DNA of 63,959 nt, filler included, from Folioceros fuciformis (Eukaryota): the NCBI GenBank assembly GCA_049999805.1. It is 7 parts of 7 records of this genome, joined end to end, with 100 filler letters (N's around TTAATTAATTAA, not from the genome) between each part and the next. Parts side by side here need not be neighbours in the genome. Positions count along the whole stretch, not along the records: positions 32,362 to 44,486 come from JBNGIO010003120.1; 6 more parts are not named here. One strand, written 5' to 3'. Made by a program: the position numbers and the translations under genes. This document shows positions 21,586 through 60,278 of this stretch, in pieces (position 1 is the first letter of the stretch; every line of letters begins with the position of its first letter). The notes beneath the pieces are model-generated. The model saw only the letters and a program-made list of their open reading frames with translations, was not told the DNA's origin and ran no database searches.

Positions 21586-21685
21586 NNNNNNNNNNNNNNN
21601 NNNNNNNNNNNNNNNNNNNNNNNNNNNNNTTAATTAATTAANNNNNNNNNNNNNNNNNNNNNNNNNNNNNNNNNNNNNNNNNNNN
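21586..21685. other. Artificial contig spacer
   Basis: N44-TTAATTAATTAA-N44, identical at six places. Confidence 0.98.
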
Positions 21686-30507: not shown

Positions 30508-32261
30508 ATTCGCTCCGTAAGAACCAAACGTGGGAGTTGGTTTGGTTGCCTAGGGATAAGAAGGAATCACCATGCAAATGGGTGTATAAGATGAAGGTCA
30601 TACCCCATGATGGCAAAGCCAAGTACAAGGCGTCATTGGTTGCTAAGGGTTTTAAGCAATAGCAAGGTATTGACTTTGATGAGATTTTCTCACCAGTTGT
30701 CAAAATGACCACTTTGCGATGTGTTCTTACTCTGGTTGCGAGGAATGACATGGAACTTGTCCAGATGGATGTGAAGTCGGTATTTCTGCATGGTGATCTC
30801 CAGGAAGAGGTATATATGCTGCAACCAAAGGGTTTCATTGAGAAGGGCAGAGAGCATCTGGTGTGCAGGTTAAAGAAGAGCCTTGATGCTTTGAAACAGG
30901 CACCCAAAGAGTGGTATTACAAGTTCCACTCATTTTTGCTTTCTCAAGGCTACAAACATAGCAATGAGGATCATTGCCTCTGTACGAAGCAAGCTAAGGA
31001 TGGAAGCTTGCTCATTTTGGTCCTCTATGTGAATGATATGCTAATTGCTGGGAGTAGCAGTGATGAGATTTCAACGTTGAAGTCAAAGTTCAATGCTTGC
31101 TTTGACATGACAGACTTGGGAGAGGCAAGCCATATTCTTGGCATGCGTATTCGTCGAGACAAACATAAGCATTTGCTTTACTTTTCTCAAACTGAATACA
31201 TTAACAGGGTGCTTCAACGTTTCAATATGGAGAAGAAGAAGGTATTGAGTACTCCGTTGCCTTCATATGTGAAACTTTCGAGCAAGGATTGCCTAAGCTC
31301 TGCGGAGGACAAAGCTAAAATGGAGAAGGTTCCATACTCATCAGCAATAGGGAGTTTGATGTATGCAACGATTGCTACACGTCCTGACATTGTTTTTGCA
31401 GTGGGAGTGGTTAGCAGGTTTATGTCAAACCCTGGCAAGAAGCATTGGGAGGCAGTAAAGGAGTCATGAGGTATTTAAATGGTACAAAAGCTTTGTGCAT
31501 ATGTTCTGGTAGTGAGGATGCATTTGTCGTTGGATATACACATGTTGATTATGCACGGGATATGAACAAAAGGAGGTCCACATCATGTTATGTCTTCATG
31601 TGCACTAGAGGGGTAGCCTCATGGTGATCTCGTTTGCAATCGTGCATAACGCTATCTACCATAGAGGCCGAGTATGTTGCAGTGACTGAGGCTTGCAAGG
31701 AAGCCATGTGGCTTGCTCGTTTAGTGGGAGACTTGGGGATCAAGGTTGAGCAGCCAATGTTGCATTGTGAAGCTAGAGTGCTATCCAATTGGTGAAGAAT
31801 CCAGTGTTTCATGCGAAGACCAAACATGTGGAAGTGAAGTATCACTTCATTCGAGAGGTGTTGGAAGATAAGAGGGTACAGCTTGTCAAAGTTCACACCA
31901 GTCAGAACCCTGGAGCTCTCTACGGAGCAATTTGCACAAGCTCGGACACTCATGGGCATGAGGTAGACCACTCTCCTATGAAGGTAAATTGGCCTTTAAG
32001 TGGGAGTTGTAGGGTTATTAAAGCCCAATGTGCTTAGACTAATGTGTTTAGTCTAAGATTAGTGTCTAGTTAAATATCATTTGTTTAGATTAGCTAAGCT
32101 AATCTTTAGGAAGCTTCTTGTGCAGCTTCTTGTGCGCTTCTTGTGAAGCTTCCTTGGGAGCTCTTCTACAGGGTATAAATACCCTCTTGAGCTCCCTTGC
32201 AATTGAGATTGTGTGAGAGTGTGAGACCTCTCTTTCTTCTCTCCTCCTTGCTTCCTCCTCT
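30508..32261 (+). mobile_element. 5'-truncated copia B-family copy (RT-RH, PPT, 3' LTR 32008-32261)
   Basis: ORF 30705-31469 is near-identical to the copia B RT. The LTR starts tgtagggttattaaagccc as in copia B and runs into the gap. Confidence 0.92.
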
Positions 32262-32361
32262 NNNNNNNNNNNNNNNNNNNNNNNNNNNNNNNNNNNNNNN
32301 NNNNNTTAATTAATTAANNNNNNNNNNNNNNNNNNNNNNNNNNNNNNNNNNNNNNNNNNNN
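32262..32361. other. Artificial contig spacer
   Basis: N44-TTAATTAATTAA-N44. Confidence 0.98.
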
Positions 32362-32446
32362 TCTTACTTCTGCACGGGTGCTGTGTTGTTTGTGCAGCTT
32401 GAGGCGAGAAGATATCTCTTGGTCGGTGTTCCATCAACCAAAGTTC

Positions 32447-33045
32447 ATGTCAGATCTAGACGTTCAGATCGCGGGGGCTTACGGTACGTGCGAATCTTTT
32501 GGACGTTACCACGCCGTTTCTCCGCTGTGTTGTCCGGATAGGTGACTTTTCTTCGTCTCTTGCAGATCCGTTCGCTGACGCGAATGCTGAGGATTCTGGG
32601 GCAGGGTCTAAGGACTATGTGCATGTCCGCGTGCAGCAGCGGAATGGTAGAAAGAGTCTGACAACTGTGCAGGGCTTGAAGAAAGAATTCAATTACAACA
32701 AAATCCTCAAGGATTTCAAGAAGGTAGGTCAGCTCTTAGGCCCACCCCATTCCTCATTGTCACCACGGTACTTGTGCGAGCGAGTTTTCTGACGTGAATC
32801 TGTGGTGCAGGAATTCTGCTGCAATGGGACCGTTGTGCAAGACACGGAGCTGGGTCAGGTGATTCAGCTGCAAGGGGACCAACGCAAGAATGTTTCGCAG
32901 TTCCTCGTGCAGGTGAGCATTCAACTCTGTTGTCTCTGCGGTGAGCCACGGTCCTACGGCTGAGCGATTTCTGACGGGTTGTTTCTTGGTTCTGCAACAG
33001 GCTGGAGTTGTGAAAAAAGATCTCATCAAAATTCACGGGTTCTGA
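32447..33045 (+). CDS. eIF1: Eukaryotic translation initiation factor 1 (SUI1), 113 aa; exons 32447-32483, 32566-32723, 32811-32912, 33001-33045
   Basis: All introns are GT-AG. Spliced product: MSDLDVQIAGAYDPFADANAEDSGAGSKDYVHVRVQQRNGRKSLTTVQGLKKEFNYNKILKDFKKEFCCNGTVVQDTELGQVIQLQGDQRKNVSQFLVQAGVVKKDLIKIHGF*. Confidence 0.97.
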
Positions 33046-33639
33046 GGTGGGACACCGTTATATCGAAGCTTTGCCAGATGCCCGGGGCATGATGTGCGGT
33101 GTCTGAACTTTGGATGTTGCGGCAAGTGGGTCTTGGCTGTGGAATTCCATGAGCCGCTAGGGTTTGGCTTTTGTGTTGTGGTTGTAGGGTGATGTCCCCA
33201 CACGTTTATGCAGTGTTAATTTCTCCCACGACTTGGCTTGACCGTGTGAGTCGGCAAAGATGTGGGGAAAGCTGGCATCTATTAATGTACTTGAGTTTCT
33301 GGTGTGGTCATTCACTCTGTGTACATAACGACTCCTAGTGGAGTCGGAACTAGTTGTGCAAAATAAAAGCCATGTTGAGAACGCCGTTCAAATGGGCGAC
33401 CTCTTGACGTGGTCCTTGTGGTTCACCTATGACATTCACAAGGCTGGCCTCGGTCGTACCCACTCCTGTCAGGCCTGGTTGTGACACTTCGGAGAGCCCG
33501 CATAATGGTTTCAGCACGGCTTCCACCAACACACCTGTTGCGACAGCACCGACGAATTAATGACGCACTACTCGCCGCTCTTGTTATTTACGTAGTTCGA
33601 ACACGGTTATGCCTCGTCAAGTTACACGCAGCTCTAGCT

Positions 33640-33981
33640 ATGGCTTCGTCCACCTCTGTATTGATGCTCCTCCTTCTCGTCTCGCTTGTGACTGCCGTCT
33701 TCGCTACAGCTGATTCGCTGGGGGCGTCGGGGGAAGCCTTGCAAGAAAGTGATGCCAGCATCCATGTGAAGGTGAAGTGTAACGTGGATGTGGTGGCCTG
33801 TCTGCGAGGGAAGCGACAGTGCTGCCAGCAGCTGGAGAAAGCGGACGCTGCCTGCTTCTGCAGCGTTGCGCGCAAGGTTGCAGTGACTGTGAACGTGGAC
33901 GTTGCCGTGAACTTGCTCAAGACTGTTTGCCCCAAGCTGGTGGACGTTCACGTCCGTGTTATCTGCCCCGGCAGCCATTGA
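33640..33981 (+). CDS. Secreted 8-cysteine-motif protein (nsLTP/prolamin superfamily), 113 aa
   Basis: Hydrophobic signal peptide MASSTSVLMLLLLVSLVTAVFA, then the C-x6-C-x6-CC-x9-CFC...C...C pattern. Intronless. Confidence 0.85.
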   Translation: MASSTSVLMLLLLVSLVTAVFATADSLGASGEALQESDASIHVKVKCNVDVVACLRGKRQCCQQLEKADAACFCSVARKVAVTVNVDVAVNLLKTVCPKLVDVHVRVICPGSH

Positions 33982-35423
33982 GGTGGACAACGATGCTCGC
34001 TTGTAAATCTAGTCTCTTGGCAGCCTCTCGGTCTTGTTCTGTACATGCATTTCACACAGTTCTTCTTCTGCCTCCAGGTTGTCTGACGGACGATTACGTG
34101 ACGCTGTTGCACTGGGAGCTGGACGATGTCGACGTTCTGATTGGAACCGTTCTTAACGGCCTTGTCACTTCTCGTTTTCTAATTCTTTACTCTCTACCTT
34201 TGATTGGCTTGATCGTCTGGTCCAACTTTGTCTTAGCAACGTTTCGGAAGCAAATTGCAGGAAGTTCGACTTTGAATCAGTGAAGCCTGTTCTGGACTTC
34301 CGGGGAAGGCAGCACCTGCAGGTGCTTCCGTTCACGGAGTCCTACATGTTATGTTATTATTGAAATGAACGAAGATCAATATTAGTCCATCGAAATTCCT
34401 GTTTCTAGTTTGTGTATTCCGTTTCATGTATCACTTAGTTCTGCGTGATTTTGTTTCGGTGGGTTCCATGACAAGGTAACGCTCAGTCGAGCTATCAGAG
34501 AGCGTGACCTCTCGGACCGAGGGGTCACGCTCTCTGCCAGCTGCTCAGCGTCCTAGCGTATCAGTTCTACCATCGCCTAGTTGCAACGACCTAGCTAAAC
34601 TGAGGTCACTCAACTCACTGCATCCAATACGCAGTTCGCAACAGGTGCAGGAGTTCTGACGTGGGACGAACGATCTAATCGACGAGTCGGTTTTGGTGTA
34701 CTCGCATCGTTCACGCGTTCCTGGTCTTGTCCTCCACGGCAGGGTTAACGGTAAATCTCTTGCAAGTATGCTGCGATTGGAAATGAAACGCGGACAATGA
34801 CTGCATCTGGGTATACATGTGCAATTGTGAAAGGCACGCCGTGTCTGTCCACGAGATCTTCAATCCGAGAATATGGCTGAAGTTAGTAACCAGGGCCTGC
34901 CACTTTGGACAACCATCCACGCCTAGGGCTAGTCTTGTTCCGAGTATATGCTTTGTTGGAGAGACATCATTTTGTAATCCTGTATGCTTGTATGATGACC
35001 GAGGTATAGTATAGTTCCCCAAGGCCTCAGTCTTACATTCTGTGATGCTATATGCTGACTTGAGGCTTGATGTGTTGGGTTGGAGTGGCTGACCCATCTC
35101 GCCTGAAGAGTTATCAGAGGCTGACCATCATTATTCGTTGAAGTGTACTGATACAGACTTTCTGAAATAGAGAGACTGCATTGCTTGCAACTCCCATAGC
35201 CTGCTGACCTGCAGCGACTGACTTGTGGTGATCAGTATTGGCCAGGGCCCTTCATCAAGGCAGGGAAACTGTTTGCGTGGATACTCATACCTTGCCGAGC
35301 ACGAACTATGATATGTTTTGTTCGCTCTGTCGGGCATTGAGGTACTTAGGAAGATCCTAAACCCATATCTCGTGGCCCACATGAGCACACCTGAAACACA
35401 ACTTTGACGGGCATTTACCAATT

Positions 35424-38400
35424 CTAAACTTGACCCGCGGCTTGACGTTGGGGTGTTCCACTCTTTGCTTCACTAATGGGATGCCTCTCACCACACAGAA
35501 ATCTGTGAACAAAACCGTCTACATCTGTCCACGAAGTTTCACCTGGCTGCTTCCATGCCTTTATTCTGATTCTTCTAGCCTGCGTCTCTTCTGCATGCAT
35601 CCACATTTGGGCACCGGAATATATGTTCCACATCAATACATATGCTGCCGCGTCGTCCTTGTCCAGTTTCACTGCCAGGTCGAACGCGTAGCGTCCTACT
35701 CTTACATTGTTCCACTTCCGACAAGCACCCAAGATCGTGTGCCACACTGTAGCATCAGGGAGTACAGGCATTCCCCTCACCACAGCCAGTGCCTCATCCA
35801 GTTGGCCTGCACGGCCCAGGAGATCCACCATGCATGTGTAGTGCTCCACTGCGGGAGTGATACCATACTGGACACTCATAGCCTCGAAATACTCTAGCCC
35901 CTTGGTTACTAGACCCGTATGACTGCATACCATCAGTACACTGAGGAACGTTATGCCATCTGGACTTACGTCATCTTCCTTCATTCTAAGAACCAACTTA
36001 AAGACCTCTTCACTGTCTCCTTGGTGGCTGTATCCGGCAATCAGTGCATTCCAGGCGACAAGGTTCCTCTCGGGCAATGCCTCAAACACCTGCTGGGCCT
36101 CAACAATGCTCCCGGACTTGCTGTACATGTTTATCAAACTGCCAGCCACAAACAGATCACCTTGAAGCTGTTGTGATTTGATCTGTTCATGTAGCTGCCT
36201 TCCCAGATGCAAAGCTGCAGCATTTGCACATGCGTGCAGGAGACACACAAATGTCATGGAATTGGGTACAGCAGTGCCGTCTTCTTTCATGGCACTGTAA
36301 AGACAAAGGGCTTCCTGGCCCATGCCCTGCTGAGAATACCCTGCTATCATGGCATTCCATGTCACCACATCCTTTTCAAGGAGTCCGTCAAAAACTTCCC
36401 GAGCATCCTTCAGGCTACCACACTTTGCATACATCTTTACCAAACTGTTAGCAACAAACACATCAGATTCATGTCCTCGTTCTGTGATCTCCACATGAAG
36501 CTGCCTCCCCATCTCCAACGCTGGAGAGCCCACACTCGCACACGCCTGCAGGAGAGACACAAATGTCACAGAATTGGGTAAGGTCATGCCATCTTGCTGC
36601 ATGACACTGTAAAAGCACAGAGCCTCAAAGCTTTTGCCCCGCTGGGAATAGCCAGTTATCATCGAATTCCACGTCACCACATCTTTTTGTCCCAGCCCAT
36701 CGAACACTCTCTGCGCATCCTCTAGGCTGCCACATTTTACGTACATGTTTACCAAACCGTTCACTACAAATGGATCAGGTTCATGTCCTAGGTCACTGAG
36801 TTGTGCATGGAGCTCCTTCCCTTTCACCAAACCTTTGGTGCCCAGACTTGCACACGCCTGCAAGAGGCACATGAAAGTTATTGAATTGGGTGCAGCAGTG
36901 CCATCCTCTTGCATAACACTGTAGAGATGAAGGGCATCCTCACCCATGCCTTGCTGGGACAAACCTGCTATCATGGCATTCCACGTCACCACATCCTTCA
37001 CATAAAGCCCGTCAAACACTCTCTGGGCATGTTCCAAGCTGCCACACTTTGCATACATATTCACCAAGCTACTGGCCACGAAAACATCTGCATCATGTCC
37101 TCGTTCTGTAATTTGCAGATGCAGCTGTTTCCCCTTTTCTAGACCTCGGGTGCCAACACTTGCGCATGCCTGCAGGAGCCACACAAACGTCACTGAATCT
37201 GGTACAGCACTCCCTTGTCCTAGCATCGCGCTGTACAGATGAAGGGCTTCCTGGACCAAGCCCTGCTGGGCATACCCTGCTATCAAGGCATTCCAGGTCA
37301 CTACATCCTTGTGACCAAGTCCGTCAAACACTTGCTGAGCGTCTGCCAAGCTACCACACTTGACGTACATCTTCACTAAATTGTTGGCTAGAAACTCGTC
37401 AGCTTGGTGTCCATGTTGTGCGATTTGTCTATGAAGCTCCTTCCCGTTTTCCAATGCTACGGTTCCCACCCTTGCACAAGCATGCAGAAGATGCGAAAAT
37501 GTTACAGAATTAGGTGTAGCCATGCCATCTTCTTGCATGACACTGTAAAGACTAAGAGCTTCCTGGTCCATGCCCTGCTGAGAGTAGGCACCTATCATGG
37601 TATTCCAAGTGACCACATCCTTTTTAGCTTGTCCATGAAACACTTCCTGAGCTTCCTCTAGGGACCCACACTTTGCATACATGTTCACCAAACTGCTTCC
37701 TAGAAGCACGTCATCTTGAAGCCCTTGTTCATTGATTTGTGCATGAAGCTGCTTCCCCTTCTCGAATGCTGGTTTGCCCACGCTTGCACATCCCTGGAGG
37801 AGGCAGACAAATGTCACAGAGTTCGGAGCAACGATATTTTCTTCTTCCATGGCAGTGTGCAGCCGAAGGGCTTCATGCCCCATGCCCAGCTGAGAATATC
37901 CGGCTATCAGGGTGCTCCATGTTACCACATCCTTTTTCGCAAGTCCATGGAACACCCTATGAGCATCCTCCAAGCAGCCACACTTTGTATACATGTTTAC
38001 CAAACTGTTGGCAACAAACACATCAGCTTGGAGTCCTCGTTCTCTAATTTGCACATGAAGGTGTCTCCCGGTTTCCAGAGCTGGAGTCCCCACACTTGCA
38101 CACGCCTGCAGGAGGCACACAAAGGTTGCAGGCTTCGGTAAAGTCATTCCTTTTTCTTCCATGACACGATAGAGATCAAGGGCCTCCTGTCCCATGCCCT
38201 GCTGTGAATATCCTGCTATCATCGCAGACCATGTTACCACATCCTTTTCACCAAGTCGGTGAAACAATCTGTAAGCATCTTCCAAGCTGCCGCACTTTAC
38301 ATACATGTCTATTAGAGTGTTGGCTACAAACACATCACCTTCAAGCCCTCGCTCTCGAAGCTGTGCATGAAGCTGTTTCCCCCTCTCCAGAGCCGGGTTG

Positions 38401-40520
38401 CCCACACTTGCACATGCCTGCAGAAGGCACACGATGGTCACAGGATCAGCTACAGCCAGACTACCTTCTTCCATGGCACTAAAAACACGAAGGGCTTCCA
38501 AACCCAGTCCCTCATGGGAATATCCTGCAATAAGAGCATTCCATGTGGCTACATCTTTCTGACCAAGTCCGTCAAACACTCTCTGAGCATCCTCGAGACA
38601 CACACACTTCGAATACATCTTCACCAAACTGCTAGCTATAAACACATCGCCTTCAAGCCCTTGCTCTCTAATTTGTGCATGAAGCTGCTTACCCTTATCC
38701 AAAGCTGCTGTGCCTACACTTGCACATGCTTGCAGGAGGCACACAAGCGTCACAGAATTGGGAGTTACTATCCCTTCCTCTTGCATACTCTTGTACAGAG
38801 ACAGGGCCTCGTGCCCCATCCCCTGCTGGGTATACCCTGCTATCATGGAACTCCACGTGACCACATTCTTCTCACGAAGTCCATCAAACACACTCCGGGC
38901 ATCCTCTAGACTGCCGCACTTTGCAAACATGTTCACCAAACTGTTGGCTACAAACACATCAGCTTGATGCCCTTGTTCTCTAATTTGCACCAACAGCTGC
39001 TTCCCTGTCTCCAAAGCAGGTGTGCCCACACTTGCACATGCCTGCAGAAGGCACACAAAGGTCACAGAATCGGGAACAGCCATGTCATCTTCTTGCATAG
39101 CTTTGTACAGAACAAGGGCTGCCTGCCCCAAGCCCTGCTGGGCATATCCTGCTATCATCGCACTCCAGGTAACTACGTCTTTTCGAGCAAGTCCGTCGAA
39201 CACTCTCCGAGCATCCCCGAGACTACCACACTTTGCATACATATTCACCAAACTATTGGCTACAGACACCTCAGCTTGATGTCCACGTTCCCTAATCTGT
39301 TCATGGAGCTGCTTCCCCTTCCCCAAAGCTGGGGTGCCAACCCGTGCACATGCTTGCAGGAGGCAGACAAATGTCACAGAGTTGGGGACAGCAATCCCTT
39401 GTTCTTGCATCACACTGTAGAGCCGAAGGGCTTCCTTCCCCATTCCTTGCTGAGAGTATCCAGATATCATGGCTGTCCAGGTCACCACGTCCTTGTCACC
39501 AAGTCCGTCAAAAACTCTCTGAGCGTCTTCCAAGCTGCCACACTTTGCATACATGTCCACCAAGCAATTACAAACAAACAAATCAGGCTCAAGCCCACTG
39601 GCCAAGATATCAGCATGCACCTGCTGCCCAGCTCTCAGGTCCCTTCCCCTTGCACAGGCCTGAAGTGCTGCCACGAACAGATGACCATCTGGCTTCACAC
39701 TGGACCTGCGCATCCGTTGATATAGCTGCAAGGCCTGCTTGTCTTGTCCATGTCTAACATGTGCAGAGATTATGGAAGACCAGATGAAGGCATCTGGTTC
39801 AGCAACCGTGGTGAACACATCCATCGCGTCTTGCAACCTGCCGAACGAAGCATACATTCGCAGAATGTGGTTGCTCAGGAACGTGTCCGACTGATACCCC
39901 TTGTCCATCGTCAAACCATGCACCCGACGACCCAGAACAAGATTCTTCTTCAACACACATTTCTTAAATACAGTATAAAACAGAGACTTGGGAACACAGG
40001 AGTCTGTCCGCACCAGAACTTCCAGAGCCTCAACAGCCTCAGTGAGCAGGCCCTCATGACATAGCTTGCTCACAGTTTCAGCCATCACAATCCTATCGTA
40101 TCCTGCAGGCCTGAGATTGTCCCAACCGTCGGGCAAGCTAGATTTGGGCTTAGGGACCTCACGACCCATATGCACATCCCAAGCAGCAAGCTTCGACTTC
40201 ACCCAGGCTGGTTTGTAGAGGTGATGCAGCCAGAGCCCCTCATGGGATTCTCTGTGCCGGAAGTCAGGCAAACGCTTACTTTTCTTAGCATGCCTGTTAT
40301 CCCACCACAGTGTTGGGTCCCGAAAGAATTGTCCCCACAATAGCTCCTGCTGACGAACCTGGCTGGCAGGTCCGCCTCCATCCACCCATCCTGTTGGATG
40401 AGCTGCCTGTCCGGCTAAAGGCCCCCATCTTTCGGCTGGCTCGCTTGGCAAAGCTCGCTTCCTTGAAGTCAATTGAGAAGGAGCCCTTCCAAAAGTGCCT
40501 GCTGATTTCCGGACAGCCAT
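35424..40520 (-). CDS. Very long PLS-class PPR protein (~13 P-L-S triplets, E1-E2, truncated E+, no DYW) with an N-terminal OSB-type PDF motif
   Basis: Intact ~1700-aa intronless ORF. Repeated VVTWxAMIxGY / VTFVCLLQACA / NSLVNMYAKCGS, then HYTCMVDLLGRAG and WHTILGACRKW...KQPGETSW. N-terminal WGQFFRDPTLWWDNRHAKKSKRLPDFRHRESHEGLWL. The start codon is uncertain. Confidence 0.93.
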   Translation of the reverse strand: MAVRKSAGTFGRAPSQLTSRKRALPSEPAERWGPLAGQAAHPTGWVDGGGPASQVRQQELLWGQFFRDPTLWWDNRHAKKSKRLPDFRHRESHEGLWLHHLYKPAWVKSKLAAWDVHMGREVPKPKSSLPDGWDNLRPAGYDRIVMAETVSKLCHEGLLTEAVEALEVLVRTDSCVPKSLFYTVFKKCVLKKNLVLGRRVHGLTMDKGYQSDTFLSNHILRMYASFGRLQDAMDVFTTVAEPDAFIWSSIISAHVRHGQDKQALQLYQRMRRSSVKPDGHLFVAALQACARGRDLRAGQQVHADILASGLEPDLFVCNCLVDMYAKCGSLEDAQRVFDGLGDKDVVTWTAMISGYSQQGMGKEALRLYSVMQEQGIAVPNSVTFVCLLQACARVGTPALGKGKQLHEQIRERGHQAEVSVANSLVNMYAKCGSLGDARRVFDGLARKDVVTWSAMIAGYAQQGLGQAALVLYKAMQEDDMAVPDSVTFVCLLQACASVGTPALETGKQLLVQIREQGHQADVFVANSLVNMFAKCGSLEDARSVFDGLREKNVVTWSSMIAGYTQQGMGHEALSLYKSMQEEGIVTPNSVTLVCLLQACASVGTAALDKGKQLHAQIREQGLEGDVFIASSLVKMYSKCVCLEDAQRVFDGLGQKDVATWNALIAGYSHEGLGLEALRVFSAMEEGSLAVADPVTIVCLLQACASVGNPALERGKQLHAQLRERGLEGDVFVANTLIDMYVKCGSLEDAYRLFHRLGEKDVVTWSAMIAGYSQQGMGQEALDLYRVMEEKGMTLPKPATFVCLLQACASVGTPALETGRHLHVQIRERGLQADVFVANSLVNMYTKCGCLEDAHRVFHGLAKKDVVTWSTLIAGYSQLGMGHEALRLHTAMEEENIVAPNSVTFVCLLQGCASVGKPAFEKGKQLHAQINEQGLQDDVLLGSSLVNMYAKCGSLEEAQEVFHGQAKKDVVTWNTMIGAYSQQGMDQEALSLYSVMQEDGMATPNSVTFSHLLHACARVGTVALENGKELHRQIAQHGHQADEFLANNLVKMYVKCGSLADAQQVFDGLGHKDVVTWNALIAGYAQQGLVQEALHLYSAMLGQGSAVPDSVTFVWLLQACASVGTRGLEKGKQLHLQITERGHDADVFVASSLVNMYAKCGSLEHAQRVFDGLYVKDVVTWNAMIAGLSQQGMGEDALHLYSVMQEDGTAAPNSITFMCLLQACASLGTKGLVKGKELHAQLSDLGHEPDPFVVNGLVNMYVKCGSLEDAQRVFDGLGQKDVVTWNSMITGYSQRGKSFEALCFYSVMQQDGMTLPNSVTFVSLLQACASVGSPALEMGRQLHVEITERGHESDVFVANSLVKMYAKCGSLKDAREVFDGLLEKDVVTWNAMIAGYSQQGMGQEALCLYSAMKEDGTAVPNSMTFVCLLHACANAAALHLGRQLHEQIKSQQLQGDLFVAGSLINMYSKSGSIVEAQQVFEALPERNLVAWNALIAGYSHQGDSEEVFKLVLRMKEDDVSPDGITFLSVLMVCSHTGLVTKGLEYFEAMSVQYGITPAVEHYTCMVDLLGRAGQLDEALAVVRGMPVLPDATVWHTILGACRKWNNVRVGRYAFDLAVKLDKDDAAAYVLMWNIYSGAQMWMHAEETQARRIRIKAWKQPGETSWTDVDGFVHRFLCGERHPISEAKSGTPQRQAAGQV

Positions 40521-41693
40521 GGGCACGCGTTACGCTTACGATTCCGAGAGACATTGATCCGTCGCTACGCAATACAGCAGCAAATGGAAGAATCTACACC
40601 TGGAGTACCCAGGTGACTCAAATTGATTCTGAGAACGGGCATGCAGTCATGGTTCACCAGTTAATCTCGGTAACCTGATGTCAGCCTCGTAGCTGGAGGA
40701 CAGGCAACCTATGCACCTGTAGGTACGGATTGGTTGTGTCAACGGGCGGGCGAGGTTTTCGTTCAATCTCGTTGAGTTCTATTCAACCGAGTTTGCGGGC
40801 GACACATGCTAGTTTCTTTTGGATAATTTAGGACGGGTGGCCATATCCTGTTTTTTCAGGGAAGGGAATGCAAAGCAGATCACCCGCATGCATGGTGACC
40901 CGCTTTCTGCAGAGATGGAAACAAGAACAGCCGCTGGACCATTTCCCGCTCACGGTGATTAGAAAGTCGACTTCCTGCCCGCATCCAGTAAATCAGGCTC
41001 CGCTCACTACCTATGTCCTAACCAGTCGCATTGTTGCTGCACATCCACTTGTTGGCCCGGTACACATTCCAGGCTGCACTTCAGTTCAAATACAGAAACA
41101 GCAAAAAAGCAGAGAAAGCAAGCTTCCTACTGTCCCCAATTGCTCACTCCTTCCCACTTTCCGCACACGCGCACAAGCCTCAAATTGCGCACTTCATGCT
41201 GCGTTGCTGCTGGTTATCCGGATCACCCGGGTCTGGCCAAAAGGCCAAATTGGCATTCCTGCGATTGAACAAGCAACCGATCAGATTCGACAGAACATGT
41301 TGCCTCCAAGGATCACAATGAAGATCCATCATAGAATACCTAGAGGGTGCTGAAGCGCAATACAGACATGAGGCAACCCTGCAAGGGTTTAGGGTTGGGT
41401 CAGGAATGGCGTCATGCATATTGCAGGCTGAAACCTGGCCTGAGACGGAACATGATCTCCGACTTCTCCGTTTTCAGCTTTATCTGCGCCTGCTTCATAC
41501 AACGAAAACTAAGGATGCCGGAAGATCCCACCTCCTGGCCCGCAAAGGCGACGTCTCATGATCATGTGCTTGTAGCCCTTCATGGGACGACTCGAATGGA
41601 ACTATGCAGGGGACAGAGAGTGCCGTTTGAGGAAATACAGCAGAGTACGCGAATGTCGTTAACCAGACATGGCTACACTATTCGAGAGACACT

Positions 41694-44486
41694 CTACCGG
41701 CAAGGCTCGAATTTGGGGATGCTTTTAACCCCAACCAGAAAACTATGCACCAGCCCATCCAGGTCCGTCCACCAGCTCTGGCCAGGTTGCTTCCAGGCCC
41801 TGACACCTATTCTCCTTGCCTGCATATCCTGCGCCTGCCCCCACATCTCGGTACCGGTGAATATGTTCGACATGAGCACATACGCTGCATCATCCTTCAT
41901 GTCCAGCTTCAGTACTTGGTCGAAGGCATGACGTCCCACCTCCAGGTCCCTCCACTTTTGACAAGCACCTAGTAGAGAATGCCAAACTGCAGCATCGGGG
42001 AGTACAGGCATTGCCTTTACCAAAGCTAGGGCCTCGTCCAGTAGGCCTGCACGGCCCAGGAGATCCACCATGCATGTGTAGTGCTCCACAGTTGGGTCAA
42101 CGCCATAGTCACTGCTCATGCCGTCAAAGTATTCGCGACCCTTTCTCACCAGACCCGTATGACTGCATACCGTGAGTAGACTGAGAAAGGTGATGCCATC
42201 TGGTTGTATGCCATCGCCTCTCATTCTGTCAACCAAATCGAAGACCACTGCACTGTCCCCCTGCCGGCTGTATCCTGCAATCAGCGCATTCCACGTGATA
42301 ACATCTCTTTCAGGCATCGCGTCAAAGACTTTCTGTGCTTCAGCCATGCTCCCTGACTTCCCATACATGTTTATCAAACTTCGGGCTACATACTCATCAG
42401 CTTGGAGCCCTTGTTCTTCAATCCGTGCATGTAACTGCCTTCCCACATACAATGCCGCCACACTTGCGCACGCCTGCAAGAGGCATGCAAATGTGACAGA
42501 ATCGGGCACAGCAAGGCCTTCCTCTTGCATTGCACTGTAGAGCTCAAGTGCTTCCTGCCCCATTCTCTGCTGCGAATACTGGGTAATCATAGCATTCCAT
42601 GTCCCCACATCTTTTCGAACTAGTCCATCGAACAGTTTTTGCGCATCTCCTAGGCTGCCACACTTTGCATACATGTTTACCAAACTGTTGGCTATCACCC
42701 CATCAGCTTGGTGCCCTTGCTCTCTAATCCGCTTGTGAAGCTTGATCCCCGTCTCTAAAGCGGCGTTCCCAAGATTTGCGCATACCTGAAGTACACAGAG
42801 AAACGTCACGACATTGGGTAAGGCCGTGTCATCTTCTTGCATAGCACTGTAGACACGCAGGGCTTCCAAGCCCTTGCCATTCTGCGAATACCCTGCAATC
42901 ATCACATTCCACGTCACAACATCTTTATTTGCAAGTCCATCGAACACTGTCTGGGCATCCTCCAGGCTGCCACATTTTGCATACATATTCACTAAACTGT
43001 TCACCACAACCACGTCAGCTTGATGTCCTCGGTCCCTAATTTGTGCATGAAGCTCTTTGCCCGTCTCCAGAGCAGCAGTGCCCAAACTTGAACATGCCTG
43101 CAAGAGGCACACAAAAGTAACAGAATTCGCTGCAGGTGCGCCATCTTCTTCCATGACGCTGTATAGATGAAGTGCTTCCTGCCCCTTGCCCTGCTGCGAA
43201 TACCCTGCTATCATTGCATTCCATGTCACAACGTCTTTGTCCTCTAGTGCATCGAATAGTTTCTGGGCCTCTTCCAAGCTGCCACACTTGGCATACATGT
43301 TCACCAAGCTGCTGGCTACAAACAGATCATCATGGTGTCCTCTTTCTCTGATTTGCACATGAAGCTGCTTGCCCTTCTCCAAAGCTGGGGTGCCCACCGT
43401 TGCGCATGCCTGCAGAAGACATACAAAAGTAACAGAATCCGGCGGAACATTCCCTTCCACTTGCATATTATTGTAGAGAAGAAGGGCTTCGTGGCCCATG
43501 CCCTGCTGGGAGTACAATGCTATCATGGCATTCCATGTCATCACGTCTTTTTCACCAACTCCCTCAAACACACTTTGAGCATCTTCCAAGCTGCCACACT
43601 TTGCATACATCTTCACCAGACTGCTGAATACAAACGCATCAACTTGGTGTCCTTGTTCCACGAGTTGTGTATGAAGCTGCTTTCCCTTCTCCAATCCCTG
43701 GGAGCCCATGCATGCACATGCCTGGAGGAGGCAGACAAATGTCACAGAATCAGGGATTGCTATGGCATTTCCTTGCATAGCACTGTAGAGCTTTAGGGCT
43801 TCCTGGCCCATGCCCTGCTGGGAAAACCCTGCTGTGAGAGCAGTCCAAGAAACTGGATCTCTATGTCCGAGTCCGTCAAACAATCTTTGTGCATCCTCCA
43901 GGCAGACACAGTTGGCATACATCTTCAGCAAACTGCGGGCTACACTATCATCAACTTGAAGACCTTGTTCTCTGATTTGTGCATGAAGCTGCTTCCCTAT
44001 CTCTAACGCTGGAGTACCAACAGTTGCACATGCCTGAAGGAGGCACACAAACGTCACGGAATTGGGTGCAACGATGCCTTCTTCATGCATAGCGCTGTAA
44101 AGACTAAGGGCTTCCTGCCCCATGCCCTTCTGGGAATATCCAGCTATTATGGCACTCCACGTCACCACATTCTTGTCACAGAGTCCGTCAAACACAAAGC
44201 GGGCATCCTCTATGCTGCCACACTTCGTATACATGTTCACCAAGCTGTTCGCTACAAACACATCACCTTGATGTCCTTGCTCTCTAATCTGCTCATGCAG
44301 TCGCTTCCCCATCTCCAAAGCTGGGGTGCCCACGCTTGCACAAGCCTGCAGGAGACTAACAAATGTCACAGAGTTGGGGACAGCAACGCCTTCGTTGTGC
44401 ATACCATTGTAGAGATCAAGAGCTTCCTGCCCCATGCCCTGCTGGGCATATCCTGCAATCAGAGCTGTCCAGGTAACCACATCTTT
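41694..44486 (-). CDS. PLS-class PPR-E protein, tandem paralog, 5'-partial (runs into the gap)
   Basis: Open frame of at least 928 aa with 8 visible triplets, E1/E2 and KQPGQSWW...VHSFLVG. No DYW domain. Confidence 0.92.
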   Translation of the reverse strand, partial: KDVVTWTALIAGYAQQGMGQEALDLYNGMHNEGVAVPNSVTFVSLLQACASVGTPALEMGKRLHEQIREQGHQGDVFVANSLVNMYTKCGSIEDARFVFDGLCDKNVVTWSAIIAGYSQKGMGQEALSLYSAMHEEGIVAPNSVTFVCLLQACATVGTPALEIGKQLHAQIREQGLQVDDSVARSLLKMYANCVCLEDAQRLFDGLGHRDPVSWTALTAGFSQQGMGQEALKLYSAMQGNAIAIPDSVTFVCLLQACACMGSQGLEKGKQLHTQLVEQGHQVDAFVFSSLVKMYAKCGSLEDAQSVFEGVGEKDVMTWNAMIALYSQQGMGHEALLLYNNMQVEGNVPPDSVTFVCLLQACATVGTPALEKGKQLHVQIRERGHHDDLFVASSLVNMYAKCGSLEEAQKLFDALEDKDVVTWNAMIAGYSQQGKGQEALHLYSVMEEDGAPAANSVTFVCLLQACSSLGTAALETGKELHAQIRDRGHQADVVVVNSLVNMYAKCGSLEDAQTVFDGLANKDVVTWNVMIAGYSQNGKGLEALRVYSAMQEDDTALPNVVTFLCVLQVCANLGNAALETGIKLHKRIREQGHQADGVIANSLVNMYAKCGSLGDAQKLFDGLVRKDVGTWNAMITQYSQQRMGQEALELYSAMQEEGLAVPDSVTFACLLQACASVAALYVGRQLHARIEEQGLQADEYVARSLINMYGKSGSMAEAQKVFDAMPERDVITWNALIAGYSRQGDSAVVFDLVDRMRGDGIQPDGITFLSLLTVCSHTGLVRKGREYFDGMSSDYGVDPTVEHYTCMVDLLGRAGLLDEALALVKAMPVLPDAAVWHSLLGACQKWRDLEVGRHAFDQVLKLDMKDDAAYVLMSNIFTGTEMWGQAQDMQARRIGVRAWKQPGQSWWTDLDGLVHSFLVGVKSIPKFEPCR

Positions 44487-44586
44487 NNNNNNNNNNNNNN
44501 NNNNNNNNNNNNNNNNNNNNNNNNNNNNNNTTAATTAATTAANNNNNNNNNNNNNNNNNNNNNNNNNNNNNNNNNNNNNNNNNNNN
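44487..44586. other. Artificial contig spacer
   Basis: N44-TTAATTAATTAA-N44. Confidence 0.98.
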
Positions 44587-51032: not shown

Positions 51033-54000
51033 TGTTAATGAAATAGTTAATTCACCTAAAGTTAGGTTGACTAAGTGTTTGTGGTTTTATGAACAGTTAT
51101 AACCACCTACACAAACTTTGCATATATCTTTGGATTTCCCATGAAACTAATAACCGCTTTTATTCTTCCTTCATGTGTAAGCTAGCACTGACGCTCTCTC
51201 ACCCTCTTGTGCCCCTCGTGATCCACAATAACATTATGGTATCAGAGCACTGGTGATCGAAGCACGAGTGCAGATGCGCTGTCTTACAAGATGCCGAAGA
51301 GAGGGCCCGTAGCATGCGCGCCACGAAGGAGGGTGTTTGTAGAAGGGGAACAAATCCCCGTGACAAGGAGAACCTTTGTGTGTCCAAGTTGTTGGGAAGA
51401 CGATCAATCTCCTATCCCAACATCCAAACACACTATTTCACCTACTTCCTTCAGGCGCAGTGTCAGCCCTGCTTCCAAAACCGGCAAAGCCCCCTTGGTA
51501 AGACCGTCAACACCAAGTGCACATCGGAGGCGTGGACAGACCAAGCAAGAGAAGGTGAGTGAAGTTCTTGCTTCGCGTGCTCGCATCCGAGAGTTGCAGG
51601 ATGTTCTGGACAGTCTTATGCTCGACATTAAATAGTTACATCTGACCTGCGAGAGCCACCTCTGCGCCAGGCGTTCCCATGTATCTTCCCTCCTAACCAC
51701 TCGTCGCCAGTCGGCGGCAGATTACTGACAACTTGTTTAGTTTTGATGTCATGCCGCCTAGGAGACAGCTGGCGGCTCCATCTGACGATGATTTTGATCT
51801 TGATGCTGGTGGCATAGTGCATCCTGACGAGGAGGAGGCACCCTACCTGACAGGCGACAAAGGCGCTTATCAACAGCCCTTTTTTCAGCCACCGCCTGTA
51901 GAGCGTACACCTTTCAATTTCAATTTTGGCCTGAGTCGAGATCAAGCTGGTGGCGCTCGGGAGGGGAGACCATGGGAAGCATTTGGCTTATACAATTCCC
52001 GGAGGCAACACCCTGGAGACGAGTTAGAAGATCAGCCTGCGCAACAGACTTGCAAAGACCCCCCCATCTCGGCTGGAACAGCTCATACGACATCTGCCAC
52101 CACAACTGCTAGCACTGTCGCTTCCTCAACAACAACCACAGCCAGCCCAACGGGGGCATCCACATCAACCATGGCGGCACTTCCTCAACCAGCCCTGAAG
52201 ATTGAATTCAGGGACAAAGATCGTTTCAATGGGAACGACTACAACACATGGTCACTAAGGTTGACACAAATATTTGAGGAAAATGAGCTATGTCCGTGAT
52301 GGATGGGAGTGTGAGATGCCCTGTTGCAACAGCAACCAATGCTTTTGACGTACTCGACTAGAAACGAAAGGGCAGGAGAGCACGTTCTATTCTCATTGCC
52401 TCACTGGACAGAAATATGATGCCTCACACTCTTGGTGCTGACACCTCTGTAGCTGTGTGGCACAATTTTTCCCAGATTTACAAGGATAAGAGCAATGCTT
52501 CCCAAGTCTTTGCACACAGGGACTTTTATGGCATGAGAATGAAGGATAGTGACTCTGTCGAGTCCTACATCAATCGTTTCAGAACTGCACGTGCAAATTT
52601 GGCATATTGTGGTACTATTCTTATGAAGAACAAGCAGGAACGTGTCTATTGGCTTCTTTACCCCCAAGCTACAGTTTGATTGGAGCTCTTTTAGCAGAGG
52701 AACGCACCAAGGGTTTCCACAAAGGAGTCAAAGGGGAATCACAGCAGCACTCCAAAGTTTTTTTTTTGGTCGAGGCAGAGGGAGTTTTCAAGGACGTGGT
52801 TGTGGTGGACAAGGGCGTGGAGGCTACCCCATAGCTAAGCAACCAAACTTGCAAAGGAAAATCTTCACTTGTCATTGGTGTAAGATTCCTGGTCACTTTG
52901 AGAAAGACTGTCGGAAAAAGCGTGCTGGGGAGCCTCGTAAGGAAGAGACTTCTCATGAGTCAAACATGACCACATCGAAGTCTCCAACCAGTTGTCTAGC
53001 AGTTTTAGCAGTTTGTCTATCTTCTGTGCAAATTCAGGCTGATATGTGGTTTTTGGACTCTGGTGCCACAAATCACATTTGCTATGATAAGAGAGCTTTT
53101 AGCAACTTTGCCTCTACTCCTAACAGTCTACAATTTGTTTTGCTAGGGGACGACAGTGGTCTGGCCATCAAAGGTTCGGGTTAGTCACCATCAAGTTGCC
53201 TAATTCTAAGGTCATACCCTTGTCAGGTGTGCTTCATGTTCCATCCATGACCAAGAACCTCATGTTGGTCATGAAGTTAGCAGAAGAGCACTCTTGTCGT
53301 ATCTGCTTTGATCACATGGGCTGCTTCATATCTCGCATACCTGGTTGGGATGACATTTTTTCAGGCACTCCCTTTAATGATCTGTACCTTTTAAATGTGA
53401 GAACTGTACAACACCAACCGACTGTCCATATTAGTCAGTCTCCTTTTTTATCTCCAACGCAACTGTGGCACTATCGCCTTGGCCATGTCAACTTCCAGAG
53501 GCTTTCAACTTTAGTTAACAACACTGTTTTTCGTGATCAGTTGTCTTTTCCCTTTGATAGGCAAGCCTTTTGTGACTCCTGCCATGTTAGCAAGGCTATT
53601 TCCCAGTCCTTCCGAGATCAGAACCTGTCACAAGCCACTTCCCTGTTACATACAGTCCATAGTGATTTATGTGGTCCAATGTCCATAGCATCTTTTGGAG
53701 GTGCCCTTTACTTTCTTACCTTCATCAATGAATGGAGTCGTTATTGTTCAGTCTATGTGCTGCATAGCAATAGTGACACCTTCACTTGTTTTCAAGACTA
53801 TGTGGCCATGGCACAGCAACAAACAGGGTGCAAGCTTAAGATATTTCGATCCAACAATGGAGAGGAGTACATCAGTCATGCCTTCTCCAATTTTTGCTTG
53901 ACGAAGGGAGTTATTCATCAATTCACGGTTCCTTATACCCCTGCTCAGAATTCCTTTGCTGAATGCAAGAATAGGACACTCCAGGAAGCCACTCTTTCTA

Positions 54001-55251
54001 GCTTATCTTTTGCTGGTTTGACTCGTGGATATTGGGCAGAGGCATTAGTGGCCGCCAACTATGTATAGAATCGGCTTCCCACTAAGTAACTTGGTCTCAT
54101 CACACATTACGAAAGGTGGACAGGCAAGAAACCCTGTATCACTCATTTGCGGATTTTAGAAGTCCTGCATATGCCTTGGTTCCCTCCCAATTGCGAAACA
54201 AACTAGATCCCAAGGCAGTTCGACGCATATTTGTGGGTTATGCAAAAGATGTGAAGGGTTACAAGCTCTTTGACCTGAGTACCATCAGCTTTCCTATTCC
54301 CGTAGTGTCATTTTTCATGAGCATGCCTTGTTACGACGTCATGATATCTTGCTTTCCCCCTCTTCTATCCTGCCACCTGCCACCATACAAGGTGTTGATG
54401 ATGAGCTCGATTTTGCCACTGACAAGGTCACTGATGTTGCTATCTTTGATTTTGATGATCTCACTGTAGGCGCTACTACTTCAGCTTCACGGGGGCAAAA
54501 CATACAGTCATCCTCCAGTAGCGGTCACATAGATGTCACCCACATTTCAGATGAGTTACCTATACCTTGTTCTCCTAGTTCTCTTGCTGATCCTGTGACT
54601 GTTGTTGAACCTATAGCAGTAGACCCTCCAGTCGATTTTATGGTAGATTTACCTCCTACTGTTGCTGAGACCGATCCTCCTACCTCTGCCGATGATCAGC
54701 CAACTTCACCAGTCTTTTGTAGGTCTTCTTGTCATTATCCCCCAAGGCATGAATGGAAAGAACCCCCTTTTGTAGTAGGCATAGCTTCCACACCTCCTAA
54801 ACCCAACTTCAACACTCATGAGCCTTTGACCTACCTAGAAGCCATTACTGGTCTAGAGGCAGAATTCTAGAAGGAGTCCATTCAGTCTGAATATGACTCA
54901 CTCATAACTAATGGCACTTGGAAGCTGGTTGACTTGTCTGAAGGTGGGAAGCCAGTTTCTTGCAAGTGGGTTTTCAAGAAGAAACTCAACACAGATGGAA
55001 GTGTGGGTCGTTACAAATCCAGACTTGTGGCAAAGGGTTACAGTTAGGTTGCTGGCCTAGACTATAATGAAACGTTTGCTCCTGTGGTTAAATCCACTTC
55101 TGTTAGGATATTGTTATCTCTGGCTGCTCATTATGGTTTGCATGTCCACCAACTTGATGTAAAAACTGCATTCCTTCATGGTACTTTAGAAGAGGAAATC
55201 TATATGCAGCAGCTCGAAGGATTTGTCATTGATGAGGAGAAAGTATGCTTG
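51033..55251 (+). mobile_element. Ty1/copia element D (5' LTR 51033-51233, PBS 51237-51248), interrupted in RT
   Basis: TGTTA...TAACA LTR and TGGTATCAGAGC PBS. Gag KIEFRDKDRFNG, CHWCKIPGHFEKDC knuckle, WFLDSGATNH, integrase ORF 53196-54068, and RT up to EEKVCL. Confidence 0.92.
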
Positions 55252-56382
55252 TGTGGACGCAAAACCCCGGGCACTGATTGCCAACGGGTTCCACCTTTAG
55301 TGGCCACACTTATCCCACGGTCGTTGAGACATTGGGTTTCGTTCCCACGAAGGAGCGATGGGGTTCCTTGCTGCTGTGGATGGAGGGTCGGACTTGATCA
55401 ACTCGATGATGGATTCGAGGGCTCCCCTCCAGCTCCGATCAGGCGTAGGACAGGCCTCGCTGTCCGGCGGTCAGCTGCACCTCTCTCAGTGCCCACAAAC
55501 TCACTCCAGTCACTACAACGACTCTAACCTCTCAGATCTGCGTCTTCCCTCACACACTTCACTCACTCTCTCACTCCAGCACCAACACCAGCAACTACCA
55601 GCAACCAGCAACGACACCACTACCTTCTACACTTCCCTACTGACTCCTCCTATCCGGCAAGAGTCACTAGACTAACTCCAAACAAAAGGACGAAGGGAAC
55701 ACACTCCTCTCTTGGGTATCTCCTCCCCACAACCTTACCAGACGCCATGAGACATGGCCGGCCTACAACACTTGACCAGGCAAGAAACAAGAGTGGACAG
55801 GTCGAGAGAAAGACACACCCTTTACAATGAAGAGCTAGGGGCAAGCCCCTTCACCCTGGTCATTACACCTTGTGATCCTACCAGACACTATACAACCGGC
55901 AACACGTTGCCCTCGATCCTACCAGACGCTGTACAGCCGGCAACACGCTACCTGCGATCCTACAAGACACTGTACAGCCGGCAACACACGGCTTGCGATC
56001 CTACCAGACGTTGCACAGCCGGCAACACACTGCAGGTCCTAAACCAAGCAGGGGCAGACCACAAGAGCTCATGGAGAGAGGACCTCCAAGAGCTCACAAA
56101 GAGATAGACTGACTCCCAAAGTGAATGACTCCCTCCTCCTACAGGCTCACCTGATCTTATAGGAGCCTCTCTCTCTCTCTCTGACTTCATCTCTCTCTAA
56201 CTTGAGAAATATTATTTTAATAGCATAGCCGGCTGTCACCAGCCACTTATTTAGACTTCTAGCACAACCTGCCACCAATGAGCTGGCCCTACCACCACAA
56301 GGATCTACCACCTCTTAGACTATCCTGAGACTTCAGAGGATGTCTGATCTTGAAAGATCTGGGGACGCCGCCTCTTCCTTGC
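55252..56382. mobile_element. Insertion interrupting the copia D RT; probable LTR of another retrotransposon
   Basis: RT homology stops abruptly at a TG-starting non-coding sequence (tgtggacgcaaaacccc) that runs to the contig end. Confidence 0.6.
55874..56035. repeat. 41-bp tandem repeat x4
   Basis: gatcctaccagacrctgtacagccggcaacac... starts at 55874, 55915, 55956 and 55997. Confidence 0.9.
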
Positions 56383-56482
56383 NNNNNNNNNNNNNNNNNN
56401 NNNNNNNNNNNNNNNNNNNNNNNNNNTTAATTAATTAANNNNNNNNNNNNNNNNNNNNNNNNNNNNNNNNNNNNNNNNNNNN
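56383..56482. other. Artificial contig spacer
   Basis: N44-TTAATTAATTAA-N44. Confidence 0.98.
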
Positions 56483-59400: not shown

Positions 59401-60278
59401 TCTCAGTTTTTGGAAAATCCCGGAAAAGAACATTGGACAAACTTGAAACGAGCCTTCCGTTACCTGAAAGGCACAGCAAAGATAGGCATAGCCTATAAGC
59501 ATCAAGAAAGAAAGCCACTTGACCTTGAAGTGTTTACGGATTCAGACTATGCAGGAGACATCGATAGTAGGAAATCAGTTTCAGGCTATGTTATTTCAGT
59601 TGCTGGAGGGCCTGTGTGCTGGTCTAGCAAGAAGCAACCAACAGTTGCTCTTTCTTCAACAGAGGCTGAATACAGGGTCCTGACAGCAGCAGCCAAAGAA
59701 ATAGTGTGGTGTAAGCTCTTGTTCAAGGAACTAGGTATACAGATACCAACTTGCACAACTATCCATATTGACAATCAGGGTTCAATGGCATTAGCAAGAA
59801 ATCCAGTATTCCATGCACGTGCAAAGCATGTGGAGGTGGAATACCACTACATAAGAGGACTTTTGACTGAAGAGAAAGTGGAGCTGCAGTATGTTCCGAC
59901 ACAGGATAACCCAGCAGATATACTTACCAAAGCTTTGAGCAAAGAAGCTCATTATAAGCACATGCAGCGTTTAGGGATGGGAGAGGCAGAAGCTCTCCTG
60001 TCCAACCTAAAATAACACAGAGTTCCTCTAAAGGCCCGAAGAGTTAGAGCTATCTGAAATCTTCTCTATCTCAACTCCTGACTGCAAGGTTTCGTAGATG
60101 GACTCATCTTCAGAATCAGAACTTGAGCAGTTGACGGGCGATAGACGGTCTTGATTAGACTTCACAGCTTTCCCTTTACTTTCCAGCCCTCTTTCTTCTT
60201 TTAACTTCTTAGTAGACTCTGCACAACAAGTGGGAGATATCAGAAAATATCAAGAACAACAAGAAATAGCAGCAGCAG
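56483..60278 (+). mobile_element. Ty1/copia element E: pol (PR-IN-RT-RH) with stops, PPT and start of the 3' LTR
   Basis: WYLDTGATAH, WHKRLGH, LRSDNGGEF, YKARLVARGF, VYVDD, DSDYAGD and ADILTKAL motifs. PPT aagtgggaga at ~60228-60237. Confidence 0.94.

Follow-up and report, generated by a model that had tools for sequence, protein, structure and literature searches.

The PDF motif is treated as a hallmark of the plant organellar single-stranded DNA (ssDNA)-binding proteins, or OSBs, in the available sections of four papers, which describe an architecture consisting of an SSB domain followed by PDF copies (PMC6963530, PMC4166229, PMC6451138, PMC13393729). Binding of ssDNA by the motif is stated for the Arabidopsis OSBs (PMC6963530, PMC4166229, PMC6451138), and in Arabidopsis OSB1 the motif is reported to suffice for this activity (PMC6963530, PMC6451138). 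OSB1 and OSB2 are described as preferring ssDNA over double-stranded DNA or RNA (PMC4166229), and AtOSB2 is reported as a tetramer (PMC6963530). The arrays of PLS-class pentatricopeptide repeat (PPR) proteins are described as binding single-stranded RNA with one base per motif, the C-terminal end being placed beside the edited site (PMC10482289). Here, we describe a gene from Folioceros fuciformis (assembly GCA_049999805.1) in which the two modules are found in one protein, a PLS-class PPR protein with a PDF motif close to its N-terminus. The gene was identified in a stretch of 63,959 nucleotides (the window), composed of seven parts joined end to end, and is located in the part derived from JBNGIO010003120.1 (positions 32,362 to 44,486). 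The primary paper on the OSBs is reportedly that of Zaegel (2006), and few plant protein families have been catalogued as intensively as the PPR editing factors.

The identity of the motif was examined by a phmmer search with residues 45-125 of the predicted protein against 1,835,955,588 representative proteins. The search returned 578 matches at E<=1e-3, including 146 at E<=1e-10 and 16 at E<=1e-30, and the best 150 were scanned with Pfam. Among these 150, 45 OSB-type proteins carried the Pfam SSB family (PF00436), a tally combining 24 of 78 at E<=1e-3 and 21 of 72 at E<=1e-4 from two scans with different cut-offs. The SSB domain lay upstream of the PDF copies wherever positions were inspected. 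PPR repeats were present in seven further proteins and a kinesin motor in one, while 97 showed no informative family. The matched proteins often contained several PDF stretches, up to 13. A profile built from 332 PDF copies and aligned to 351 gave the consensus W..lf.nP..WwDnR..K.npk.PDFKhk.tg.aLWl.s.P.WV..kL and matched the window copy with 76-77 bits (E about 1e-23). Of 19 columns with at least 70% conservation among 131 de-replicated PDF copies, 17 show the consensus residue in this copy, and both mismatches are K to R replacements within PDFKHK. Residues 58-111 are basic (11 K/R against 6 D/E), and over 60 columns the window PDF has a net charge of +5 and nine aromatic residues (W/F/Y). 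On the strength of these alignments, the motif and the PDF module of the OSBs are genuine homologues. An earlier note on this DNA had called it an OSB-type PDF motif and had named failure to align with OSB PDF motifs as one of the results that would refute this; the alignment and the SSB domains of the matched proteins agree with its assignment.

The window protein shares the PDF motif with the OSB family and lacks the SSB/OB fold that lies N-terminal to it in that family. PF00436 gave no match in the full 1698-residue protein (Pfam scan, E<=1), and the PDF is preceded by just 57 residues, too few for an OB fold. No second PDF copy was found in the window, either by pattern or by profile over 851 six-frame open reading frames (ORFs). 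Two word-indexed homologue searches with the N-terminus of the window protein found nothing, as none of 750 candidates was scored in the first and residues 45-130 yielded 2 candidates in the second; this reflects a limit of the index and not absence, as the phmmer result shows. The ESM Atlas likewise gave no usable match for residues 45-130.

The PDF motif is part of a continuous reading frame (Table 1). In the ORF scan, one minus-strand frame was free of stops from 40529 to 35424 and comprised 1701 codons between stops. Its first ATG is located at 40520 with an in-frame stop three codons upstream, and the product (P0001) has 1698 residues. The peptide quoted in the earlier note, which had placed the motif at 40180-40355 in frame with the PPR array, is read from the minus strand at 40188-40349 with no stop between it and the array. 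Pfam recognised PPR_2 (637 bits, 17 stretches) and PPR (528 bits, 23 stretches) across residues ~145-1600, and the P-L-S triplets are spaced by 101, ten times 104, and 102 residues, ten triplets thus being exactly 104 residues long. These triplets place the protein in the PLS class, and its E1 motif in the E subgroup. The deaminase that defines the DYW-type editing factors, with its C-terminal HxE and CxDCH signatures, is lacking. Pfam matched neither the DYW domain (PF14432) nor E+ (PF20430) in the 1698-residue protein, and no DYW-like ORF or exon was found downstream of the stop in 32300-35424 on either strand. The description of the protein as RNA-editing-type is therefore upheld as regards its class, by the PLS triplets and the E motif; it fails as regards the DYW deaminase, which is absent from the ORF and from the 3 kb downstream. 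The label E2-like for the C-terminal tail follows what we take to be the E2 consensus. Residues 1-57 contain 8 K/R, 3 D/E, 8 S/T and 9 A, and residues 1-133 matched no Pfam family at E<=1. The locus is probably an intact, intronless nuclear gene encoding an organelle-directed PLS-class PPR protein with an N-terminal PDF, its targeting being predicted from composition.

The same combination was observed in other plants. All seven PPR-bearing proteins among the best 150 of the 578 matches carry the PDF N-terminally, in one to three copies. P0011 (1371 aa) has three PDFs and PPR repeats, and P0036 from Adiantum capillus-veneris has two. P0073, P0082 and P0089 from Diphasiastrum complanatum combine PDF and PPR, and P0124 is a Selaginella RefSeq protein annotated as a PPR protein, with an N-terminal PDF. 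In P0102 from Sphagnum compactum, the PDF and PPR repeats are accompanied by E, E+ and a complete DYW domain. In addition, several short matches without an assigned family are N-terminal fragments of this type, including two Pteridium aquilinum records with transcriptome-style identifiers, one from Adiantum nelumboides, others from Sphagnum and one from Calypogeia fissa. The members of one fragment cluster carry the name “pentatricopeptide repeat protein”, and in the Pteridium records a single ORF includes the PDF together with the initial PPR helices. BLASTP alignment showed the Pteridium record P0116 to be collinear with the window protein from the PDF through the linker to the first PPR helices, and P0011 to be collinear with it in the PDF-linker-PPR layout over more than 1000 residues.

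A second search, performed with residues 84-170 of P0102 (PDF and junction) among proteins of 310-987 aa only, identified 49 proteins, P0102 included. PPR families (precomputed Pfam) and a PDF profile match were present in every one of them, the first PDF copy starting within residues 2-104. DYW (PF14432) was found in 25, and the same 25 bear HxE/CxDCH-type signatures. The sources were Sphagnum (27 proteins, seven species), Diphasiastrum (7) and Calypogeia fissa (4), with 11 unnamed, and locus tags among the matches listed correspond to at least 7 loci in Sphagnum fallax and at least 10 in Diphasiastrum. No seed-plant, hornwort or Physcomitrium PDF-PPR protein was observed among the database matches listed (the best 150 of 578, and the length-limited second search). 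The subfamily proposed here is defined by a PDF in the first ~170 residues, a linker and a PLS array in collinear order, all of which are found in the window protein. By domain order and alignment, this protein is a member of a PDF-PPR subfamily of non-seed land plants, both old and multi-gene, that occurs in bryophytes, lycophytes and ferns. Of the original view of an in-frame fusion between a PDF motif and an RNA-editing-type PPR protein, the fusion is confirmed by the continuous ORF and by the recurrence of the layout in relatives, and the implied one-off has given way to a multi-gene subfamily in which many members (25 of 49) carry DYW.

Table 1. Coordinates of the PDF-PPR gene, its predicted parts and other features of the window
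Feature	Position	Strand	Basis or remark
Whole coding sequence of the PDF-PPR protein	35424..40520	-	1698 codons plus stop at 35424-35426; no intron required
Presequence-like N-terminus, residues 1-57 (putative organellar transit peptide)	40350..40520	-	Composition only
PDF motif, residues 58-111	40188..40349	-	Profile, phmmer, conserved columns; modelled fold spans residues 51-117 (40170-40370)
Tail of PDF C-terminal helix and flexible linker, residues 112-141	40098..40187	-	Low AlphaFold pLDDT
PLS-class PPR array, residues 142-1602, 13 P-L-S triplets	35715..40097	-	Pfam, triplet spacing
E (E1) motif, residues 1603-1661	35538..35714	-	PF20431 E_motif, 32.9 bits (cut-off 27.3), profile positions 1-59 of 63
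Short tail with E2-like start, residues 1662-1698	35427..35537	-	ORF ends 37 residues past the E motif
Tandem paralogous PLS-E PPR gene	41697..44486	-	Pfam PPR_2 402 bits, E_motif 39.6 bits
Copia-type long terminal repeat retroelement ORFs (gag, integrase, RVT_2)	8387-10836 (-), 12111-15486 (+), 30663-31466 (+), 53124-60012 (+)	as marked	Six ORFs confirmed by Pfam

The earlier note had stated that no functional characterisation of this architecture was known, and our literature search agrees, as it found no description of a PDF-PPR protein. Neither PPR nor DYW proteins were linked with the PDF motif in the literature searched, most subscription-journal PPR surveys lying outside its scope. The main text of a 2026 survey of 182 OSB genes, supplements aside, contains neither “PPR” nor “pentatricopeptide” in the sections available (PMC13393729). 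Where “PDF motif” and “pentatricopeptide” occur in one text, the available portion mentions PPR only in relation to RNA polymerases. There is no Pfam-A model for the PDF motif, so routine domain annotation is blind to the PDF-PPR architecture. The PDF-PPR proteins thus apparently represent an undescribed, conserved subfamily built from two well-known modules, with bona fide DYW-type members.

Compared with the OSB proteins, the window protein shares a module of ~50-60 residues with W, P, WWD.R, K, PDF.H, LW, P.WV and L in order, the same predicted helix-strands-helix fold, and a presequence-like N-terminus that suggests an organellar location. Unlike the OSBs, it has no SSB/OB-like domain. The PDF of OSBs is C-terminal and present in one to five copies, whereas that of the window protein is single and N-terminal, with ~1550 residues of PPR repeats after it; moreover, the PPR-borne PDFs form a cluster apart from the OSB-borne ones. 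With the E/DYW PLS-class editing factors, such as Physcomitrium PPR56, it shares regular P-L-S triplets and a C-terminal E motif, and its relatives with an N-terminal PDF include complete-DYW proteins, as in the DYW subgroup. It differs from PPR56 in its N-terminal PDF, which is not mentioned for PPR56 in the available part of the source (PMC10482289). It also departs from typical E/DYW factors in its exceptionally long regular array of 13 triplets, its truncated E2 and the lack of a cis deaminase. PPR-SMR proteins and PRORP with its NYN nuclease combine a P-class PPR array for specificity with an appended second nucleic-acid domain. The design principle is the same in the PDF-PPR proteins, with differences in the appended domain, its N-terminal position, the presumed ssDNA ligand and the PLS class of the array.

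The structure of the PDF module was modelled with AlphaFold2. Residues 45-125, with an alignment of 42 rows, gave a mean predicted local distance difference test score (pLDDT) of 90.4, with predicted helices at 51-67 and 105-117 and strands at 72-74, 87-89 and 95-96. The same small fold was obtained again when residues 45-330 were modelled with an alignment of 23 rows. In this longer model, linker residues 125-133 and 135-138 (model residues 81-89 and 91-94) had pLDDT below 50, and PPR helix pairs began at about residue 142. In these models, the PDF module looks like a small, independent helix-strands-helix domain on a flexible tether. The PDB yielded 0 matches by sequence at E<=1 and no Foldseek match at E<=1e-3, and in a VIA-align comparison with 48,161 chains the highest Z was 4.2, for helical proteins that are unrelated. 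A solved structural relative was thus not found in these searches, which does not in itself prove a new fold.

The origin of the fusion was addressed with a tree of 131 de-replicated PDF copies over 60 columns, comprising 44 from PPR proteins and 87 from SSB-bearing proteins. The sampling was confined to copies that span profile positions 25-75, come from proteins with one of the two labels, and remain after removal of same-label copies at least 93% identical. The PPR label required 5 changes on this tree, compared with a mean of 37 in 500 shuffles, none of which was as low; related copies share labels, so this result indicates clustering and is not proof. An approximately unbiased (AU) test did not reject a single clade of all 44 PPR-borne copies (p-AU 0.911), and the constrained tree lay 51.7 log-likelihood units above the short free search. 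These sequence comparisons fit, but do not prove, one old fusion event whose product then multiplied along with the PPR family.

For the mechanism, we propose that the PPR array would recognise an extended segment of single-stranded RNA, one base after another, while the PDF module, which is basic and rich in aromatic residues, would hold single-stranded nucleic acid irrespective of sequence at the array's 5'-facing end. We consider it rather likely that the PDF acts as an accessory single-strand binder of this kind, ssDNA and RNA variants being taken jointly. The likeliest partner of the PDF would be ssDNA of the organellar nucleoid, exposed in a transcription bubble, an R-loop, or a replication or recombination intermediate, because the sole biochemistry of the module, that of Arabidopsis OSB1 and OSB2, shows a preference for ssDNA. 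Such contact would keep the RNA-binding factor at the sites from which nascent transcripts are released. A factor tethered to the nucleoid or the transcription bubble is the single most likely detailed reading, and even so a tentative one. A wider proposal, in which the PDF-PPR proteins would be ancient land-plant editing or processing factors whose OSB-type module anchors them to nucleoid ssDNA while sites are recognised on the nascent transcript, is put forward as a speculative possibility. As the window protein has no DYW domain, it would need a deaminase in trans in order to edit; otherwise, it may serve solely as an RNA (or ssDNA) binder.

Several observations weigh against a tether of this type and against the single fusion behind it. 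Support in the tree is weak, only 10 of the 128 inner branches being starred over the 60 columns. The next methionine, M118, lies just past the PDF motif, and a shorter product starting there is possible by sequence alone. The context of the motif also differs, as the PDF is N-terminal in the window protein and C-terminal to an OB-like domain in the OSBs. Read contigs from four runs (X1, X3, X10 and X16) covered 39300-41100 with short fragments that provide no usable transcript evidence. Finally, the mean charge of the PPR-borne PDFs is +1.8, compared with +0.5 for the OSB-borne ones, which could indicate a shifted ligand such as RNA.

This difference in charge bears on the reading nearest in likelihood, in which the PDF would bind RNA and either clamp the transcript just on the 5' side of the PPR footprint or prevent it from folding, which would increase the affinity or on-rate of a very long array. 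RNA binding upstream of the footprint is nearly as likely as the nucleoid tether, which leaves it possible but doubtful. The more basic average of the PPR-borne PDFs would suit it, and their clustering apart from the OSB-borne copies would allow a specialised function. In addition, the flexible linker ties the PDF to the N-terminus of the array, which faces the 5' side of the target in the parallel mode of PPR-RNA binding outlined in the available text (PMC10482289). It is opposed by the preference of OSB1 and OSB2 for ssDNA over double-stranded DNA or RNA, the sole biochemistry reported in the available sections (PMC4166229). Moreover, the residues conserved in OSB PDFs are equally kept in the PPR-borne copies, so that there is no obvious sign of an altered binding surface.

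Less support was obtained for the whole protein being a sequence-specific ssDNA binder in organelle genome maintenance, its PPR array reading ssDNA and its PDF adding OSB-like affinity. Engineered PPR arrays appear able to bind ssDNA, and a DYW domain is missing here and in most of the lycophyte and fern members seen. The module also derives from proteins described, in the available sections, as acting in recombination surveillance (PMC6963530, PMC13393729). However, 25 of the 49 relatives carry a complete DYW deaminase (HxE/CxDCH), suggesting that the subfamily originally served in RNA editing, and the E motif is kept in the window protein. We regard this function as unlikely. It is very unlikely that the PDF is instead an element for protein-protein contact or oligomerisation, for example recruiting OSB-type proteins or a trans deaminase. 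The tetramer reported for AtOSB2 (PMC6963530) and the small, independently folded module on a linker in our model are in keeping with that role, but ssDNA binding is ascribed in the available sections to the PDF itself, which was sufficient in OSB1 (PMC6963530, PMC6451138), and nothing in the analysis points to a partner. That the motif lies outside the mature product, the gene being a recently formed pseudogene or chimera among transposons or its translation starting at M118, is scarcely credible: the window is rich in copia-type retroelement ORFs, the adjoining PPR copy appears 5'-truncated and the read contigs gave no usable RNA evidence, but the 5.1-kb ORF has not a single stop, the conserved PDF residues are kept (17 of 19 columns, the misses being K to R), and the same N-terminal layout recurs in at least 56 other proteins of several lineages, some with transcriptome-style identifiers.

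If the nucleoid- or transcription-bubble-tethered reading is true, the PDF-PPR proteins would possess a built-in coupling of transcription and editing, apparently not kept by seed plants, as no seed-plant member was present among the matches listed. Since Sphagnum, a leafy liverwort and a lycophyte have the conserved fusion in full DYW-type factors, it would offer a testable handle on the long-standing question of whether organellar editing and processing are coupled to the nucleoid and to transcription. It could also provide a natural accessory domain for engineered PPR editors.

Other observations concern the reads and the surroundings of the gene. In a presumed-RNA run, a diverged contig of 898 bases also spans sequence 5' of the ATG. 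Short contigs from the same and two related organisms match the PDF-coding interval 40205-40336 at 90-99% identity; these fragmentary matches may come from additional paralogues or orthologues with a PDF. Another PLS-E PPR gene is situated in tandem with the PDF-PPR gene, 1.2 kb upstream of it, and has a similarly truncated E2 at its end, so that the two form a local PPR cluster. Its 5' end runs into the Ns at 44487-44586, and this copy is possibly 5'-truncated; past these Ns (100 masked bases), neither PDF nor PPR was found upstream of it. Stretches of Ns occur at six places in the window (e.g. 21586-21685 and 44487-44586), always as 44 N, 12 bases and 44 N, which looks like a feature of window preparation. 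Copia-type ORFs flank the PPR pair on both sides within the joined window, whose GC content is 0.476. Antisense ORFs of up to 271 codons were observed on the plus strand opposite the PPR array (37700-39760), and most likely they are not genes but arise from the repetitive codon usage in the PPR triplets.

The fusion shows the PDF to be a mobile module that is distributed more widely than the OSBs. The dinoflagellate Effrenium voratum encodes a protein (P0004) with 9 PDF-like stretches and no other domain, and a protein of 1160 aa from Kingdonia uniflora (P0003) contains 13 PDF copies. In a Coptis chinensis protein of 1526 aa (P0054), which may be a merged gene model, three PDF copies precede a kinesin motor domain.

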